From: a virus
Lineage: Duplodnaviria > Heunggongvirae > Uroviricota > Caudoviricetes
Reading direction: 5' to 3' (one strand)
Length of the DNA: 36,480 nt
IMG/VR virus record: IMGVR_UViG_2526164599_000008
Shown here: one piece after another, positions 1 through 13,695 of the stretch
How the letters are laid out: every line of letters begins with the position of its first letter
How positions within the stretch are numbered: position 1 is the first letter of the stretch
Notes under the pieces: generated by a model
Seen by the model: only the letters and a program-made list of their open reading frames with translations
Database searches by the model: none
What the model was told of the DNA's origin: nothing
Made by a program: the position numbers and the translations under genes

Positions 1-1317
<1,317 letters not shown>

Positions 1318-1328
1318 GTGGATTGAGA

Positions 1329-1351
1329 TGTGGACTGAACTACAGTCCACA
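1329..1351. repeat. Perfect 9-bp inverted repeat with 5-nt loop (TGTGGACTG-AACTA-CAGTCCACA) just 3' of the host gene
   Basis: Read directly from the sequence. Not followed by a T-run on either strand, so not a canonical intrinsic terminator. Could be a host structured element or part of the prophage end. Confidence 0.4.
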
Positions 1352-1370
1352 TCAAGATCGTGTCCGGTTA

Positions 1371-1503
<133 letters not shown>

Positions 1504-1532
1504 CAGAACTCGCTCCAGCCTGATTGCAGATA

Positions 1533-6330: not shown

Positions 6331-8100
6331 TCAGTTGCCGTTAACAATGCTGATAACACTGCTGCGGGCCGGCGTGGTCAGCGTGGCCATGACTTCATCC
6401 AGTGCGGCTTCCGGTACGCCGTCCGGGTACTGTGCCGTTAACTGGCGGTAATGTTCCGGCGTCCAGGTAAGGCCGTTGGCGCTGAACTTCCCGCGCAGGG
6501 CTTTCGCGGCCTCCACATGAGTCATGGGACGCTGTTCAGTGCGCGGTCCGCGTACGTCAGAGGCCTGACCTCGCTTCGGCATATAGGCCGGAAGTGTGGC
6601 GTCATCAATATGTTTATACGGGTCAAGCCGCCCGCCGAACGGCAGCGCCTTCGCCTTGCGTGCGGCAGCTGCATCTGCGGCGTTGTCTGTACCGGTGACC
6701 AGCGCTTCGGTTTCTTTTGCCGCCATCTGCGCCGGGGTTTCCGGCAGGGCTTTGTAACTTTCGCCAAATACCGCCGCGCCTTCAGCAAAGCCAAACTCGT
6801 TCTTTCTGACCTCTTCGACCAGGAAGAACGTCTCGTGGCCGTCCTCACCGGTCAGAACCACCTGTGCCACATCGCTGCGCCACGGGTTACGGGTAATCAT
6901 CAGTTTTTCACCGACCAGTACGCCCGGTACCGTTGATACGTCAAATTCAGTGCCCCGGAACGAGACACGAAGTTTTGGCGTGACTTTGCGGAGTTCTGGT
7001 GCCGCCACAGCCAGTTCACGACATACCTCAACGGAAGGCGCTTTTTTCAGCTGCTCAGCAGTAATCTTCAGCCAGATATCCGTGCGGGTTTTACCGTGGC
7101 GGCTGTGAACAGCCGTGGCGTTAAAGTGGCTGCGCCATTTCGCGGCCAGCGCGTTGAGTTCTTCCAGACTGTGAACCGGCCGGAACTTCAGACCCGGCTC
7201 CAGCTTGCGTTCGATAATGTCACGCGCCTTTTCCACCTGTCCGGTGGCGCGGGCGTTATGCGGCTTGTGCGCTATCAGGTCAATGCCCAGTGAGCGGCAC
7301 ATGTTTTTCGTCATACCCGCGGTGTTTGCCGAACCGGGGTCGAGATAGAGTATTTTTGGCACGCCGTGCAGCACGTCTGCGCCGCCACGCTCCTGCATGG
7401 CGTTGATAAGCACAGAACACAGGTTCTCACCGGATTCCGCACCCGTCACATACTCAACGTAAATCCAGCCGCTGGCATGGTCGGTAATCTCGTAACTCCA
7501 CACGCGGTCACTGGCGATACGGGCAAGGTTAGCGGGTTTGTTCTTGTAGAACTTCGCGCTGTCCATCACCTGCAGCCCTTTGTGTCCATTGCTCAGGTAG
7601 TAAAGCGTGCAGAGCGAGGCATCAATCTGCCAGACATGATTGGGATGCAGACTGGCCACTTCGGTATGCGGCGCAGGAGCATCCAGTTGTTCCGGGTGCA
7701 GGCCATAGTTACGCAGGGCACGACTGATGGCATCTTCGGACAACGGGAAAAACTCACCGGTGGTTTCATCTGTTCTGCCTGCGGAGATAAAGCCGTTAGC
7801 CCGCAGGGTTTCCACTGCATCCGCGATGGAATAGAGACGCTTACCGTTCTTGCGGGTGGCCTCACGCAGTGTGGCAGATATCAGCGCGGCTTCGTCGCGG
7901 GTCAGGGCGCTGCGTCCGGCATCAGCGCGTTTTTTGCGTTTATCAGTCACAGAGACCTCCTTCAGCCTGCGCAGCAGAGTGGCGCGGGACATGCCAAGTT
8001 CAGCACAGGCAGCGTCGTATATTGCACCGCGTTTACCATGCCCCGCGTCACGTGCCGCGCGGGCGACATAAACCAGTCGTTCAGTCAGGGCAGCATTCAT
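6331..8100 (-). CDS. DDE transposase (rve/Mu-type catalytic core)
   Basis: 589 aa. Candidate catalytic residues: D in HVWQIDAS, D in ILYLDPGSAN, E about 35 residues later in GQVEKA (D,D-35-E spacing). Gene order transposase then ATPase as in transposable phages. Confidence 0.8.
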   Translation of the reverse strand: MNAALTERLVYVARAARDAGHGKRGAIYDAACAELGMSRATLLRRLKEVSVTDKRKKRADAGRSALTRDEAALISATLREATRKNGKRLYSIADAVETLRANGFISAGRTDETTGEFFPLSEDAISRALRNYGLHPEQLDAPAPHTEVASLHPNHVWQIDASLCTLYYLSNGHKGLQVMDSAKFYKNKPANLARIASDRVWSYEITDHASGWIYVEYVTGAESGENLCSVLINAMQERGGADVLHGVPKILYLDPGSANTAGMTKNMCRSLGIDLIAHKPHNARATGQVEKARDIIERKLEPGLKFRPVHSLEELNALAAKWRSHFNATAVHSRHGKTRTDIWLKITAEQLKKAPSVEVCRELAVAAPELRKVTPKLRVSFRGTEFDVSTVPGVLVGEKLMITRNPWRSDVAQVVLTGEDGHETFFLVEEVRKNEFGFAEGAAVFGESYKALPETPAQMAAKETEALVTGTDNAADAAAARKAKALPFGGRLDPYKHIDDATLPAYMPKRGQASDVRGPRTEQRPMTHVEAAKALRGKFSANGLTWTPEHYRQLTAQYPDGVPEAALDEVMATLTTPARSSVISIVNGN

Positions 8101-9334: not shown

Positions 9335-9561
9335 GACGCCTCCTTAAGGATACCGGGGGTAACTTCTTTACCTATTGCAACCGATAGATCTCGCAAAATC
9401 CGATAAGTCAAACGACCGCGAGGTAGTTCACTTTTACCAGCCCAGCGACTGACTGCCTGGGTGACTGTTCGTGGTTCATAGCCCGCGTTAAGCGCGAACT
9501 GGCGCAAGCTACTGCCTCGTTCAACCAGCCGTGCCCGAACTTGTTGTTTGTTCATATGCAC
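9331..9561 (-). CDS. ner: Ner-like DNA-binding regulator (Ner/Nlp family)
   Basis: 76 aa. First gene of the leftward early operon, divergent from the repressor. HTH-like segment SLRQFALNAGYEPRTVTQAVSRW. Confidence 0.55.
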   Translation of the reverse strand: MHMNKQQVRARLVERGSSLRQFALNAGYEPRTVTQAVSRWAGKSELPRGRLTYRILRDLSVAIGKEVTPGILKEAS

Positions 9562-9643
9562 CGTGTTCCTGTTAGGTTATGATGTACTCTATTGGGTCTA
9601 TTGTACACACCCAAATGAGTGTGTCAAATTGAGATATGTTCAA
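9562..9643. promoter_or_regulatory. Divergent early promoter/operator region between ner-like and repressor genes
   Basis: About 80-bp intergenic region containing the inverted repeat ACACAC-N8-GTGTGT (around 9606..9625), a candidate operator. Confidence 0.45.
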
Positions 9644-10051
9644 ATGAGTACAAAAGAGAGATTGCGTGAAGTGATGGATGCTAATGGCATGACAATAAAG
9701 GCATTATCTAACTTATCAAAAATTCCATATCGCTCACTTCAAAACTATTTGCGTGGAGAGAGAGAACCAAACGCAGAGGCTCTTGTTGCGCTAAGCACCC
9801 ATTTGGGTGTATCGATCGATTGGCTACTTACCGGTAAAGAACATATTCCATCTAAAGAAATTGTTGCTGTACCAACACAACATCAATTCAGCCCGTCAGA
9901 CCTTAAAATGCTTGAACTTCTAAACCAGTTAGATCCTGAGGTTCGGCGAGATCTCATGCGAGGCGCTGAAGAAAAACAGCGTGTGATTGAGATGGAAAAA
10001 CAACTGAAGGAATTATCCGCAACGATTGAGCGGTTAAAAAATGTGGGTTAA
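9644..10051 (+). CDS. Immunity repressor, XRE-family HTH (Mu c-like role)
   Basis: Track ORF 9548..10051 trimmed to the ATG at 9644 (MSTKERLREVMDANGMTIKALSNLSKIPYRSLQNYL), a classic HTH_3 pattern. Divergent from the early operon. Confidence 0.65.
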   Translation: MSTKERLREVMDANGMTIKALSNLSKIPYRSLQNYLRGEREPNAEALVALSTHLGVSIDWLLTGKEHIPSKEIVAVPTQHQFSPSDLKMLELLNQLDPEVRRDLMRGAEEKQRVIEMEKQLKELSATIERLKNVG

Positions 10052-10121
10052 TGTGTTCCTAACGAGAACATATAGCAGAAATTATTTGCCATTAAGCAAT
10101 AAAAAATAAGGTGGATAGCTA

Positions 10122-11129
10122 ATGTCTGAGCAGACCATTGAAGTTAAACACGTTGTAGTTCACATTTTAGACAAACAACAAAATGGAGACGCTTCTGAGA
10201 GATTGAGTCCTGAAGAAGGTCTAGTTACTGAAGCCTCCCAGCGCCTTATAAACGATATTTGTGCAAAATATGCAGGACGCACAGGTAAAGGTTATGGCTA
10301 TTTTGAAGGCGATACGGATAACTATCCTATGGAACGAATGGCTGGGGACTTTCTCGAAGGTGTTGATGATTTCTACCAAAGTTCCTGCCGAATGATGCAT
10401 CACCTGACGGAACGTTCTCAGCGAGAAAACATGGCTACTGGTGGTTATGTTCTTTTTGCAAATATCGTGATAGGACACAATGAACACCTGTTGATAGCTA
10501 TTGTAAGCGCTACCATTGGATCCACTGTCACAGATGATTTTAACATCCAAGATAGTACCTATCTTGATATTGCTAAGCTGCGTATGGCTGGGCGCATTGA
10601 CTTAACCGCGTGGGAAAGTGGCGCAGAGCGCTATATCAGTTTTCTTAAGGGGCAAGGTAATGTTTCAAACTATTTTAAACAGTTCCTCGGCTGTAATGAT
10701 GTCTTAATCGCCAAACGAGAGTCTGAAAAGTTACGTGACGTTTTAAAAGCATTTGCGGCAGAGAAAGGACTTGACGGCGCTGAAAAAGATGCATTTCTTA
10801 AGAGTGCGTTTGAACACTTACATGCACTAAGTAAGGCTGGTGAACCACTTAGTCTTGAAACCCTTGTTAATGCCATTTGGCCCCAGGCTCCCGAGGAGTT
10901 ATCTGGTAAACTTGCTGCTGAAGAGTTGGAGTTATCGGATGGCTTCGTTCCTGATGGTCGAGTCATTCGGGCTCTGGTATCTTTTAAAGGCAAGTCTAAA
11001 TATTGGGAACTTAAGTTTGACCGGGAAGGGAAAACTGAAGGCTATATTGATTATGATCCGGAAACAAATATTATCACCCTACGTAATGTACCTGAAGAAT
11101 TTAGGGAAATGTGGATGACTGAGGTTTAA
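10122..11129 (+). CDS. NdpA/YejK-like nucleoid-associated protein homologue (cargo gene)
   Basis: 335 aa, the same length as E. coli YejK. Blocks GGYVLF, LLIAIVS, YLDIAKL, RIDLTAWESGAERYISFLKG, FKQFLG align by eye with YejK blocks as I remember them. AT-richer than the flanking phage genes. Confidence 0.5.
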   Translation: MSEQTIEVKHVVVHILDKQQNGDASERLSPEEGLVTEASQRLINDICAKYAGRTGKGYGYFEGDTDNYPMERMAGDFLEGVDDFYQSSCRMMHHLTERSQRENMATGGYVLFANIVIGHNEHLLIAIVSATIGSTVTDDFNIQDSTYLDIAKLRMAGRIDLTAWESGAERYISFLKGQGNVSNYFKQFLGCNDVLIAKRESEKLRDVLKAFAAEKGLDGAEKDAFLKSAFEHLHALSKAGEPLSLETLVNAIWPQAPEELSGKLAAEELELSDGFVPDGRVIRALVSFKGKSKYWELKFDREGKTEGYIDYDPETNIITLRNVPEEFREMWMTEV

Positions 11130-11131
11130 TC

Positions 11132-12337
11132 GTGGCGATTTCATTTGAGATGCTGACAGATCTGTATCGTCGTATGGAATTCCAAGAGGGGTTTCGTGTC
11201 GGTTCGCTGTTGCTCTTAGATCAGTCCGATTGTGATCTGGTTGATACTTTGCTTGATGATCCTCGTGAATATGGTCTTTCTATTGATACAGGCACTATCG
11301 CTCCAGGTAACACGATCATCCTACGTGTGACGTCACCACGGAGTGGACTGGGACTTGTGTTTTCCACCCATGAAAAATTGCTAAATGCTCCAAAGCATCA
11401 GTGCCTTGAGCCAGCTAATTACTTCATCCTAGAAACAAAGTTTCGTAATGATGATGAAGATATCCCCGTTTTCATCAGCAACTACCGGAAGATTCTCGAG
11501 TTCGTTAACCTGCTAAAAGAGGCCGCGGCCTACTTTGATAACTCAACTTGTCAGTTAGTTTTTCTGAAAAAAGAAGTTATCAAGCTATTACCGCACTTCG
11601 CTGCAGAAAATGTACAAAATTTGCAAAGAGAGTATCTTGATAACCTTATAGCTTGTTTCAATGATGATACCCATAAGGATCAGAAGCTAGATATTCTGAT
11701 TGAAAGTATCCAAGCAGTTAGTGATGGAATTGATTCACCTCTAGTATTCGCTTATTTACTGGACAATATTCAGCGTCTGCATGAAAAGTTTCTGAAAGGG
11801 TATCGTATCTACTCTTCTGGATTCTCTTATGACAAAGTAATGGATCAACTGCGTGCTGCAAAAGTCGAAGAAATGGGTAAAATCCACAAAGCGTTTTCAG
11901 ATATCCAGAACCATATACTTGGCATTCCTGTTGCCTCTGTTATCGTAGCTACCCAATTCAAAGTGGCTACGAAATGGTCAGGCCAAGGGATAACAAACAC
12001 AATAATTCTTCTGGGATGCATTTTTGCTGCAACGTTAATCTGGCTGGCACTTTCGAACCAGATGCAATCTATAAAGGCCTTAGGCGAAGAAATTGAATAC
12101 AAAGAAAAACAGATTAATAAGGAATATTCCTTCATTAAAGATGACGTGGCTGGTGTATTTAGCAGTATTTCTGCGCGACTAGACACGCAGAAACGTACGT
12201 TCTGGATTATACGTGGTGTTCTAGTTATGGGAATTATTACCGCTATCACTGTTTATTTTTGGTACACAAAACCAGCCCTTGACTTCATGCAGTACTTGAT
12301 TCACTGCATGAAGTCTTACTATTCGGTCAAAAGTTGA
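11132..12337 (+). CDS. Unknown protein with two C-terminal transmembrane helices, operonic with the NdpA-like gene
   Basis: 401 aa. GTG start 2 nt after the upstream stop with GAGG upstream. N-terminal soluble region of about 285 aa has no motif I recognise. Hydrophobic helices ITNTIILLGCIFAATLIWLALS and FWIIRGVLVMGIITAITVYFWY. Confidence 0.55.
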   Translation: MAISFEMLTDLYRRMEFQEGFRVGSLLLLDQSDCDLVDTLLDDPREYGLSIDTGTIAPGNTIILRVTSPRSGLGLVFSTHEKLLNAPKHQCLEPANYFILETKFRNDDEDIPVFISNYRKILEFVNLLKEAAAYFDNSTCQLVFLKKEVIKLLPHFAAENVQNLQREYLDNLIACFNDDTHKDQKLDILIESIQAVSDGIDSPLVFAYLLDNIQRLHEKFLKGYRIYSSGFSYDKVMDQLRAAKVEEMGKIHKAFSDIQNHILGIPVASVIVATQFKVATKWSGQGITNTIILLGCIFAATLIWLALSNQMQSIKALGEEIEYKEKQINKEYSFIKDDVAGVFSSISARLDTQKRTFWIIRGVLVMGIITAITVYFWYTKPALDFMQYLIHCMKSYYSVKS

Positions 12338-13097
12338 GGATAATGAGTTCCTTCTTGCGACTGGATTTGCCAGTGATCTTGAGGTTGTAGCTGATATCAA
12401 CCGACTGAATATTTAGACCGTTGAATGCCTGCCGCATTTCCGGGATATCGTTCACCGATATAATCATCTTCCCTTTGATCCTGCGTGCTAAATCTGCCAT
12501 ATGATCATAATTTTCTAGTCCGAACTCCACACCATAACCTTCCGTTCCCCAGTATGGAGGGTCACAGTAGAACAACGTATGCGGGCGATCATATCGTTCT
12601 ATGCACTGTTGCCAGTCCATGTGTTCTATGACCGTTCTGGAAAGCCGCAGGTGTGCCGCTGACAGTTCTTCTTCAATACGCAGCAGGTTGAAGCGTGGCG
12701 GGGATATGGTGGAGGTACCAAAGCTGTGCTCCGCCACCTTGCCTCCAAACGCCTGCTTCTGAAGGTAGTAGAACCGTGCTGCACGCTGGATATCCGTCAG
12801 TGTTTCTTCCGGGGTGATCTGCAGCCATTTGTAGATCTGCCGGCTGACCAGCGCCCATTTGAACTGGCGTACAAATTCTTCCAGATGATGTTTTACCACC
12901 CGATACAGGTTCACCAGTTCACCGTTGATATCATTAATGACTTCGATCTTGCCGGGTACCTTAAGAAAATAGAGCGCTGCTGCCCCACAAAACGGCTCCA
13001 CATAACATTCATGCGCCGGAAACAGCGGCAGGATGTGTTTTGCAAGGCGGCGTTTGCCACCAATCCATGGAACGATGGGTAATGTCTGCATTTTCAT
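12327..13097 (-). CDS. DNA N6-adenine methyltransferase, Dam-like
   Basis: 256 aa. AdoMet motif VEPFCGAAALYF and catalytic DPPY. Opening PWIGGKRRL matches the Dam family. Convergent with, and overlapping by 11 nt, the membrane-protein gene. Confidence 0.8.
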   Translation of the reverse strand: MKMQTLPIVPWIGGKRRLAKHILPLFPAHECYVEPFCGAAALYFLKVPGKIEVINDINGELVNLYRVVKHHLEEFVRQFKWALVSRQIYKWLQITPEETLTDIQRAARFYYLQKQAFGGKVAEHSFGTSTISPPRFNLLRIEEELSAAHLRLSRTVIEHMDWQQCIERYDRPHTLFYCDPPYWGTEGYGVEFGLENYDHMADLARRIKGKMIISVNDIPEMRQAFNGLNIQSVDISYNLKITGKSSRKKELIILNF

Positions 13098-13344
13098 AAT
13101 CTGTAAGCCTTTTACAATTATAAAAAATATGGCAGGCTAGTCTGGTCTCGCGAGACTGACTGAACCTCGGTCGGCTCACAGCGCATTCCTGTGGGGCGAT
13201 GGCCAGCCCGGTGTTCGGGTACCGGGCTGGTCGTTCTTTCAAAGTCATCATGCAGTGCACGTTTACATCTTCACTATTAACGCTGTTTAAAATCCGTATC
13301 CCGCCACATTTGTGATGCTGTCTCCACCAAACGAGGAGACACAC
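13098..13344. promoter_or_regulatory. Intergenic region upstream of the lysis/late operon; candidate late promoter
   Basis: About 250 bp non-coding. Contains the 12-bp palindrome GTCTCGCGAGAC and the stem-loop CCAGCCCGGT...ACCGGGCTGG. AGGAG Shine-Dalgarno before the ATG at 13345. Confidence 0.4.
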
Positions 13345-13695
13345 ATGAAAAACCTGAAAAAATTCATTCCCCCTGTTAAAAAACCTCGCCTCAGCGGCTG
13401 GCTGCTGACCTCAGTGCTGTTGCTGGGCATCATCGCTCTGGTCTCGCCACAGCAGTTGCCTGTTGTGATCTACAAGCTGGCACTTATCACGCTGGCAGCA
13501 GTGCTGGGTTACTGGCTTGACCGTTCGCTCTTCCCCAAAGCCCGTCCCGGTCAGTACCTGAAACATGACGACAGGCTGATGGCTGAAGGGCGTTTCCCGG
13601 TACAGACCGGCCTTCACCTGGTGTTTTCTGCTGCGTTAATCCGCCGTGCACTGATTGTTGCAGCGGTCTGCCTGGCTGTGGCAACAGGACTGTGA
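13345..13695 (+). CDS. Holin-like small membrane protein
   Basis: Track ORF 13312..13695 trimmed to the ATG at 13345. About 116 aa with two or three hydrophobic helices. Sits immediately upstream of the endolysin. Confidence 0.45.
   Translation: MKNLKKFIPPVKKPRLSGWLLTSVLLLGIIALVSPQQLPVVIYKLALITLAAVLGYWLDRSLFPKARPGQYLKHDDRLMAEGRFPVQTGLHLVFSAALIRRALIVAAVCLAVATGL

Follow-up and report, generated by a model that had tools for sequence, protein, structure and literature searches.

A prophage-borne gene pair encoding a YejK-family protein and a membrane protein, distantly related to the DS-1 defence system and similar in architecture to type II PANGU

Two genes, here called P1 and P2, adjoin the repressor gene of a Mu-like prophage of E. 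coli and encode a nucleoid-associated protein (NAP) and a membrane protein. We analysed them within a window of 36,480 nucleotides, which is the whole stretch of DNA considered here. A sequence-only reading of this DNA had guessed that a sensor is paired with a membrane effector, as in abortive-infection systems. Homology and architecture both support this guess, and DS-1 and type II PANGU are experimentally validated systems that fit it. We consider it probable (roughly 0.78) that these two components, encoded by the prophage, make up an anti-phage module of the DS-1/type II PANGU kind that acts by abortive infection.

Organization and linkage of the two genes

The P1 open reading frame (ORF) occupies exactly positions 10122 to 11129 of the plus strand, starts with ATG and encodes 335 aa. 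The P2 ORF runs exactly from 11132 to 12337 on the same strand, starts with GTG and encodes 401 aa. RefSeq/PGAP contains the same two CDSs, annotated as "nucleoid-associated protein" (P1, WP_000003711.1) and "hypothetical protein" (P2, WP_001007985.1). A Shine-Dalgarno-like AAGGTGG, read from the sequence at 10108 to 10114 (plus strand), lies 7 nt before the ATG of P1. The junction between the genes (11121 to 11134, plus strand) agreed in every detail with the earlier description of the ORFs as coupled: GAGG at 11121 to 11124 precedes the TAA of P1 (11127 to 11129), and after a gap of 2 nt follows the GTG of P2 (11132 to 11134).

On the upstream side, an immunity repressor gene of the HTH_3/CI type is located at 9644 to 10051 of the plus strand (Pfam HTH_3, E 3.9e-11; Phage_CI_repr, E 5e-6; the start at 9644 is that of PGAP). 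Downstream of the pair are a convergent Dam methylase gene (12327 to 13097), a holin gene (from 13312) and then an SLT transglycosylase gene. The pair was therefore correctly placed between repressor and lysis genes by the sequence-only reading, which had left the convergent Dam gene unmentioned. The pair is also AT-richer than its flanks, as had been claimed, with a GC fraction of 0.39-0.44 at 9501-12500 versus 0.50-0.61 in the flanks; the AT-rich block takes in the repressor gene besides the pair. No terminator-like site was found in the gap between the repressor and P1 (10051 to 10122), and in consensus scans for a promoter or terminator of the pair's own the site counts were not above those in shuffled sequences. 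The pair probably lies on one rightward, lysogeny-expressed transcript together with the repressor gene and, because of this probable cotranscription, would be expressed during lysogeny.

In homologous loci the two genes formed a strict unit, in line with the two-gene system that had been proposed. Of 33 viral loci with a P2 homologue, 31 have an NA37 gene immediately upstream of it, as do 56 of 59 loci at species level, and the two genes abut or overlap in these pairs. Moreover, the identities of P1 and P2 co-vary, with r = 0.98 over 92 loci and r = 0.85 among the distant ones. This co-divergence of P1 with a P2 that bears an N-terminal domain suggests a physical sensor-effector pair.

The two proteins and their resemblance to DS-1

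The likeness of P1 to YejK/NdpA, initially noticed by eye, was borne out by profile searches. P1 matched the Pfam family NA37 (PF04245) with an E value of 1e-80, from residue 12 to 327 and from model position 1 to 324 of 325, which is nearly the whole model length. It also matched PHROG 3767 (E 7e-117) and the YejK structure 9be2_A in the PDB (E 6.8e-30), and its predicted pI is 4.9. The housekeeping YejK/NdpA of Enterobacteria (NF001557, PDB 9be2) shares the Pfam family and the fold with P1 and aligns with it over the full length. P1 scored 186 bits against the NCBIfam YejK model (NF001557) versus a cut-off of 341, and it is therefore a paralogue. Whereas housekeeping yejK is a standalone core gene, P1 is horizontally mobile and always coupled to P2. 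The possibility that P1 is housekeeping YejK itself was ruled out by the sub-cut-off equivalog score together with the distribution of P1, which is carried on a prophage and present in 19 of 5,426 genomes. PADLOC 2.0, which is without a model for P1, returned no match for it, including no KwaB. We regard P1 as an NA37/YejK-family nucleoid-associated protein and a putative sensor of the PagA/DS-1A type.

P2 matched PHROG 5023 (E 6e-143), and its family comprises 1,282 clusters at 50% identity; given this match and this family size, P1 and P2 are not chance ORFs. In the AF2 model, an alpha/beta domain of approximately aa 1-212 (11132 to 11767, plus strand; pLDDT ~90) is followed by long helices. 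Kyte-Doolittle means over 19 residues revealed three hydrophobic segments, a weak one at aa 262-280 and two others at 290-308 and 356-374. The second segment (11999 to 12055, plus strand; value 2.33) is the strongest predicted transmembrane (TM) helix and lies inside the AF2 helix 285-331, and the third (12197 to 12253, plus strand; 1.95) is a predicted TM helix inside the AF2 helix 333-378. The layout first suggested for P2, an N-terminal domain followed by transmembrane helices, was retained; this domain, however, measures ~212 aa by AF2 and not 285, and there are two to three hydrophobic segments. Fold searches with P2 gave no informative structural neighbour.

Residues 1-260 of P2 have a net charge of -12 and a pI of 4.96. 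This acidity is moderate, and each of the 47 family members has a negative net charge there; the C-terminal helical region is basic, and net positive in 96% of the members. The N-terminal domain may be NAP-binding ("DMK"-like), and the N-terminal part is the less conserved one (mean majority fraction 0.48). The comparison located the strongest conservation within the membrane protein at aa 213-280 (11768 to 11971, plus strand), a block with a conservation of 0.71-0.81 versus 0.28-0.54 in the rest of the protein. This block forms a long helix that leads into the first hydrophobic segment, carries the motif KIHKxFSDIQNxILGIPVAxVIVATQ with invariant columns and can be aligned with DS-1B. It is a candidate for the effector core.

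DS-1 of E. coli (WP_000355468.1 and WP_000150292.1; PMC13092281) is a defence system of two genes with experimental validation (DeWeirdt et al., Science 2026, the DefensePredictor study; defensive in Table S6, PMC13092281). It has the gene order of the P1/P2 pair: the gene for an NA37/YejK-domain protein comes first and that for a protein of ~400 aa second, and DS-1B, like P2, has a soluble N-terminal part and hydrophobic helices towards the C terminus. We compared the pair with the NCBIfam equivalog models made from the DS-1 pair, NF053868 and NF053869 (cut-offs 330 and 315 bits, respectively), and by BLASTP with the DS-1 sequences given in Table S8 of PMC13092281. P1 obtained 63.7 bits with NF053868 (DS1_1_antiphage; E 1.4e-17) over residues 33-258 only, without reaching the cut-off, and P2 obtained 75.9 bits with NF053869 (DS1_2_antiphage; E 3e-21), likewise below the cut-off. 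NF053869 was matched by 47 of 47 P2 family members, the best of which (E 2.4e-27) was still far under 315 bits. In BLASTP, P1 showed 23% identity to DS-1A (E 8e-9) and P2 showed 23% identity to DS-1B over 302 aa (E 6e-10). Alignment of the P2 family with DS-1B by hhalign gave a probability of 95.2% and an E value of 2.7e-8 over 264 columns. PHROG 5023, DS1_2_antiphage and hhalign together point to P2 as a whole (11132 to 12337) being a putative membrane effector of the DS-1B/Pag2B type.

Both proteins are detectably homologous to their DS-1 counterparts, but at only ~23% identity each and with scores far under the equivalog cut-offs, and for these reasons the function may have drifted from that of DS-1. 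DS-1A (391 aa) begins with an N-terminal zinc-ribbon (CxxC...CxxC) and its NA37 part starts at residue 42, whereas P1 is without this extension and its NA37 part starts at residue 12. Unlike DS-1, the P1/P2 pair resides on a Mu-like prophage. Neither protein was found among the DefensePredictor table rows listed, and none of the RefSeq identifiers for P1, P2 or DS-1 occurs in the searchable paper text. The pair had been presented as novel and as not any named defence system. This view was not supported, as the kind has already been described and the models NF053868 and NF053869 exist. Judged by homology to DS-1 and by architecture, the pair is a distant, prophage-borne relative of DS-1/type II PANGU and not a new kind of system.

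Relation to PANGU and proposed mechanism

Type II PANGU consists of a NAP (Pag2A) and a TM effector (Pag2B) with an N-terminal acidic NAP-binding domain; both genes are needed for defence, and neither is toxic alone (Li et al., bioRxiv 10.64898/2026.04.06.716658). Upon T4 infection, Pag2A-GFP departs from the nucleoid, and T4 escapes from the system PANGU-Ecu via denA mutations. The abortive-infection phenotype of PANGU-Ecu is set off by host-genome degradation, and liquid-infection data point to growth arrest at high MOI (bioRxiv 10.64898/2026.04.06.716658). The P1/P2 pair resembles type II PANGU in architecture, both being bicistronic combinations of a YejK-like NAP and an effector with an acidic N-terminal and a TM C-terminal part. 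The same study defined a bicistronic PANGU operon by a gap of <40 bp, and the NA37 protein P1 is separated from P2 by 2 nt; similarly, the C-terminal TM domain that characterizes PagB-like proteins is represented in P2 by the hydrophobic segments within long AF2 helices. The type II operons were chosen near known defence genes and prophages are mentioned 0 times in the preprint, whereas the P1/P2 pair lies beside a prophage repressor gene.

Two other systems share part of this architecture. Type I PANGU (Pag1A and Pag1B) has in common with the pair the NA37 sensor principle and an acidic NAP-binding domain on the effector. Its effector Pag1B, however, is a cytoplasmic GRel toxSAS alarmone synthetase, whereas P2 is a membrane protein in which Pfam/NCBIfam profile searches detected no toxSAS domain. 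Kiwa (KwaA and KwaB) likewise combines a membrane protein with a DNA-binding partner in defence, but KwaB (DUF4868) has no counterpart in P1, and the pair is not Kiwa. The identification of P2 as KwaA was rejected: the PADLOC match (21 bits, E 8e-5) recurred in no more than 3 of the 47 family members, so that it is most likely TM-composition noise, and there is no KwaB partner.

According to the mechanism that we propose, which adopts the logic put forward for type II PANGU (a NAP set free from a degraded nucleoid switches on the effector and the infection aborts), P1 would be bound to the host chromosome in the lysogen. A superinfecting lytic phage that degrades this chromosome (in T4, by EndoII and later nucleases) would set P1 free, and the freed P1 would bind the acidic N-terminal domain of P2. 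The C-terminal helices of P2 would serve as an inner-membrane anchor, and activated P2 would damage the membrane or halt the cell in another manner, so that the infecting phage would not multiply. The abortive-infection phenotype, the need for two genes, the relocalization of the NAP, its binding to the effector and the escape through denA are carried over by analogy from the related systems. By the same analogy, we infer that the divergent P1/P2 pair behaves like DS-1/type II PANGU and that P2 acts on the membrane. If so, the pair would extend a newly recognized class of immunity that relies on nucleoid-associated proteins as guards of the chromosome's integrity.

A more far-reaching version of this proposal, which we offer tentatively and think rather unlikely, is that the pair represents a phage-spread subfamily of such NAP guards, with an effector of new fold, a new alpha-helical type of membrane lesion and the role of a prophage alarm. 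P2 would then work via the conserved juxtamembrane helix (aa 213-280, KIHKxFSDIQNxILGIPVA), and its fold would have no neighbour among solved structures or viral models. The repressor transcript of temperate phages would yield a "host-chromosome integrity alarm" directed at lytic phages that superinfect the lysogen, and its users would include transposable phages, which need an intact host chromosome. If this were true, the pair could reveal how the effector of type II PANGU/DS-1 works, and could show that these systems are primarily weapons of prophages and not genes of defence islands.

Superinfection exclusion would be a different use of the same proteins. P2 would block DNA entry with P1 as only its regulator or chaperone, and the individual cell would be protected with no abortive infection. 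The immunity-proximal prophage position of the membrane protein is typical of Sie genes, and the type II PANGU authors left the activation and effector mechanism of Pag2B open. However, an entry block fits poorly with the growth arrest at high MOI and the escape via an intracellular phage nuclease gene, denA, that type II PANGU displays, and the strict co-divergence of P1 with P2 also speaks for a sensor-effector pair. We therefore consider exclusion improbable.

Distribution of the pair as prophage cargo

Among the 5,426 E. coli genomes, 639 contain the transposase of the same prophage, and ~97% of these transposase-bearing genomes are without the pair. In sibling prophages the repressor gene is followed directly by Dam, and this absence of the pair supports the cargo site envisaged by the sequence-only reading. 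The pair is rare, variable cargo in E. coli. Deposited phage genomes contained no close DNA match and only six distant matches at the protein level. Homologous pairs were found on differing phage backbones, namely in a lambdoid Salmonella prophage (at the Q-lysis moron site), in the Sinorhizobium phage phi2LM21 and in an Acinetobacter prophage, as well as in non-phage chromosomal loci.

These data bear on the suggestion, already raised as an alternative in the sequence-only reading, that the pair benefits the phage itself: the NAP would remodel the host nucleoid or aid transposition or repression, with the membrane protein as its tether or regulator. Mu-type transposition draws on host NAPs (HU, IHF), the pair adjoins the immunity region of a Mu-like prophage, and P1, with 186 bits for housekeeping YejK and 64 bits for DS-1A, is nearer to the former. 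Nevertheless, the pair is dispensable for the phage, given the ~97% of transposase-bearing genomes that do without it, and P1 and P2 are both homologous to a validated defence pair. As the lambdoid Salmonella prophage and phi2LM21 are non-transposable, and some loci are not of phage origin, we regard a helper of this type as very unlikely. An addiction (toxin-antitoxin-like) module that stabilizes the prophage, in which P2 would be a membrane toxin restrained by P1 and neither would have a dedicated anti-phage role, appears least likely of all.

As a putative abortive-infection module, the pair adds a large divergent family (~1,300 clusters at 50% identity) from Gamma-, Beta- and Alphaproteobacteria, which several temperate phage types carry as lysogeny-linked cargo, a point undiscussed in the two founding papers. 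Current annotation misses this family, P2 being "hypothetical" in PGAP and P1 lacking a model in PADLOC 2.0; such pairs would become annotatable if the NCBIfam DS1 models were lowered or supplemented. We considered and rejected a module of three genes with the convergent Dam gene as its third member: this layout occurs in phi2LM21 and not in the lambdoid, Paraburkholderia and Acinetobacter contexts, and sibling prophages keep Dam without the pair. In Paraburkholderia, the pair adjoins an Mrr-type nuclease gene.

The gene pair and its prophage setting

We analyzed P1, an NA37/YejK-family gene (10122..11129, plus strand, start ATG, 335 aa), and P2, the coupled membrane-protein gene that follows it (11132..12337, plus strand, start GTG, 401 aa). 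The sequence-only reading had placed both ORFs exactly, and the identical E. coli locus in RefSeq carries the same coding sequences, annotated as "nucleoid-associated protein" (WP_000003711.1) and "hypothetical protein" (WP_001007985.1). At the junction, as read from the plus strand, a GAGG motif (11121..11124) is followed by the P1 stop codon TAA (11127..11129), a 2-base gap, and the GTG of P2 at 11132, which is the layout of translational coupling that had been described.

The pair is also AT-richer than its flanks, as claimed, with a GC content of 0.39 to 0.44 over 9501-12500 versus 0.50 to 0.61 on both sides; the repressor gene lies inside the same AT-rich block. This CI/HTH_3 repressor (9644..10051, plus strand) is the left neighbor of P1. 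Left of it runs the leftward early operon, comprising a ner-like gene, an HTH gene, DUF3102, a DDE transposase (6331..8100), an ExeA/MuB-like gene, Gam, and Mor. On the other side, a gene for a Dam-class adenine methyltransferase (12327..13097, minus strand) converges on P2, overlapping its 3′ end by 11 nt (12327..12337), with a holin and an SLT transglycosylase to its right. The assigned location between the immunity repressor and the lysis cassette was confirmed, with Dam in between. All of this belongs to a Mu-like transposable prophage that has integrated into the E. coli hyf operon and whose left end (window about 1311..1532) adjoins a truncated hycH/hyfJ-like gene of that operon.

The repressor and the ner-like gene diverge, and the region separating them contains a near-consensus sigma-70-like site that faces leftward (9627..9600, minus strand; TTGACA, 16 nt, TACAAT; 11/12 matches), a short distance upstream of the repressor start (9644). 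The transposase operon probably uses this site as its early (Pe-like) promoter. No terminator-like site was found between the repressor stop (10051) and the P1 start (10122). Since the promoter and terminator scans returned site counts not above shuffled expectation, we can only infer that P1 and P2 are co-transcribed with the repressor.

The prophage family is common in E. coli, its transposase being present in 639 of 5,426 complete genomes; the exact pair occurs in 19 of these 5,426. Three sibling prophages were inspected; in all of them the repressor is another allele and the Dam gene comes right after it, without the pair. The site is therefore genuinely variable, the pair is established as cargo, and it shares one AT-rich block with the immunity genes. 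Siblings also carry three small hypothetical genes in the Dam-holin interval that are absent from the window's prophage; this second variable slot (12255..13592 in locus L102 and 12605..13927 in L103 and L104) corresponds to window about 13100..13310. Near-identical siblings are inserted in rstB (strain 83972) and beside ycaL (MNCRE44 and THO-015), a scatter expected for random transpositional integration.

Domain content, linkage, and distribution

P1 matched Pfam NA37 (PF04245) end to end (E 1e-80), PHROG 3767 ("nucleoid associated protein"), and the solved YejK structure 9be2_A (E 6.8e-30), and so the likeness to YejK/NdpA seen by eye was borne out by profile search. Its score on the YejK equivalog model was 186 bits against a cut-off of 341, indicating that P1 is a YejK paralogue and not the housekeeping gene. 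P1 is strongly acidic for a presumed DNA-binding protein (net charge -19, pI 4.9); any DNA binding must rest on local basic patches, an example being K198, R199, K203, and R205, after the FKQFLGC motif.

No Pfam family was found for P2. It matched PHROG 5023 (unknown function; E 6e-143), and its family resolves into 1,282 clusters at the 50% identity level (E up to 1e-3). The sequence is acidic up to residue 260 (1-260: net -12, pI 4.96) and basic from there on (261-401: pI 9.25), with hydrophobic segments at 262-280 (weak), 290-308, and 356-374. A confident AlphaFold2 model built from 47 homologues (mean pLDDT 82.6) predicts an alpha/beta domain (1-212) followed by long helices (213-275, 285-331, 333-378, and 380-400).

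The survey of co-occurrence established that the two genes are linked, as the first reading had supposed. An NA37 gene lies immediately 5′ of the P2 relative in 31/33 viral contigs, the other two being cut at contig ends. With each species represented by a single genome, a scan placed it directly upstream on the same strand in 56/59 loci, with gaps of about -12 to 38 nt (approximate, from tblastn alignment ends); the three exceptions are Cupriavidus loci encoding only the C-terminal half of P2. Across 92 loci, the identities of P1 and P2 are correlated (r = 0.98; r = 0.85 for distant pairs), and P1 is nearly always the better conserved.

The pair moves between phage backbones. It was found on Mu-like prophages of several Enterobacterales, in a lambdoid Salmonella prophage, in Sinorhizobium phage phi2LM21, in an Acinetobacter prophage, and at a Paraburkholderia chromosomal locus near an Mrr-type nuclease. 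In the Salmonella prophage (L036, 6980..9182), the homologous pair sits where morons are classically found, with the Q antiterminator on one side and the holin/lysozyme genes on the other. It lies on the strand opposite to those genes, which indicates independently transcribed cargo in that phage. The same order of NAP, P2 homologue, and convergent adenine methyltransferase recurs in phi2LM21. Dam is probably outside the module, because it is missing from other contexts and, in sibling E. coli prophages, occurs without the pair. A helper role in transposition or nucleoid remodeling, which the sequence-only reading had offered as its alternative, is unlikely, since most siblings lack the pair and it also occurs in non-transposable phages and at non-phage loci.

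Relation to DS-1 and type II PANGU

Among the systems that the DefensePredictor study validated is DS-1, a two-gene defense system (Science 2026, PMC13092281; "defensive TRUE" in Table S6). In DS-1A (E. coli WP_000355468.1, 391 aa), a YejK domain follows a zinc ribbon; DS-1B (E. coli WP_000150292.1) is a 404-aa hypothetical protein (PMC13092281). NCBIfam has equivalog models for both, NF053868 ("DS1_1_antiphage, nucleoid-associated anti-phage protein") and NF053869 ("DS1_2_antiphage"). P1 matched the former (E 1.4e-17, 63.7 bits) and P2 the latter (E 3e-21, 75.9 bits), far under the curated cut-offs of 330 and 315, respectively, so that the window pair does not reach equivalog level. Direct comparison with the sequences in Table S8 of PMC13092281 gave 23% identity between P1 and DS-1A (E 8e-9) and 23% across 302 residues between P2 and DS-1B (E 6e-10). 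With hhalign, the P2 family profile aligned to DS-1B at 95.2% probability over 264 columns, and 47/47 sampled P2 family members matched the DS1_2 model. These matches establish domain content and homology; unlike DS-1A, P1 lacks the zinc ribbon.

The likeness to type II PANGU is at the level of architecture, a YejK-like NAP paired with a predicted transmembrane protein, and the acidic N-terminal region of P2 is a putative counterpart of the NAP-binding domain of that system. As defined independently in a 2026 preprint, type II systems combine a YejK-like NAP, Pag2A, with a transmembrane effector, Pag2B, whose acidic N-terminal "DMK" domain binds Pag2A with a KD of 19 nM (bioRxiv 10.64898/2026.04.06.716658). 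Both genes are needed and neither alone is toxic; infection dynamics point to abortive infection, T4 infection displaces Pag2A-GFP from the nucleoid, and denA (EndoII) mutations are a T4 escape route (bioRxiv 10.64898/2026.04.06.716658).

The intuition of the sequence-only reading about function thus agrees with the likeness to DS-1 and type II PANGU; its claim of novelty does not stand. Two prior descriptions and existing NCBIfam models already cover this kind of system. The pair is a divergent, prophage-borne member of a described kind, missed by current annotation. Its interest lies in the linkage to prophage and repressor, the large unannotated P2 family, and the mechanism of the effector.

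Proposed action of the pair

We consider it likely, with a probability of roughly 0.78, that the pair is a functional homologue of DS-1 and type II PANGU in anti-phage defense. The defense phenotype, relocalization, binding, and denA escape are known from published work on those related systems, and by analogy we infer that the window pair is active and that P2 acts at the membrane. For type II PANGU, abortive dynamics and an intracellular escape gene have been reported, neither of which fits superinfection exclusion by a block of entry. Nor does a plain addiction module agree with the reported non-toxicity of related pairs.

According to our model of a defense pair, whose details we hold with less confidence, P1 would coat the host chromosome in the lysogen. 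A superinfecting lytic phage that extensively degrades the chromosome would free P1, which could then bind the acidic N-domain of membrane-anchored P2. P2 might in turn use its conserved juxtamembrane helix and TM hairpin to compromise the membrane, or arrest the cell in some other way, and the infection would be aborted. The route from Pag2A to Pag2B activation was left for future work by its authors (bioRxiv 10.64898/2026.04.06.716658).

In the Cupriavidus loci (L091 4992..5618; also L092 and L093), which have no nearby NA37 gene, a 208-aa ORF covers only the conserved C-terminal half of P2 (residues 191-392) at 44% identity. This ORF could be a remnant left by truncation or an effector module that stands alone; should it be functional, the membrane part would seem able to work without the putative NAP-binding domain.
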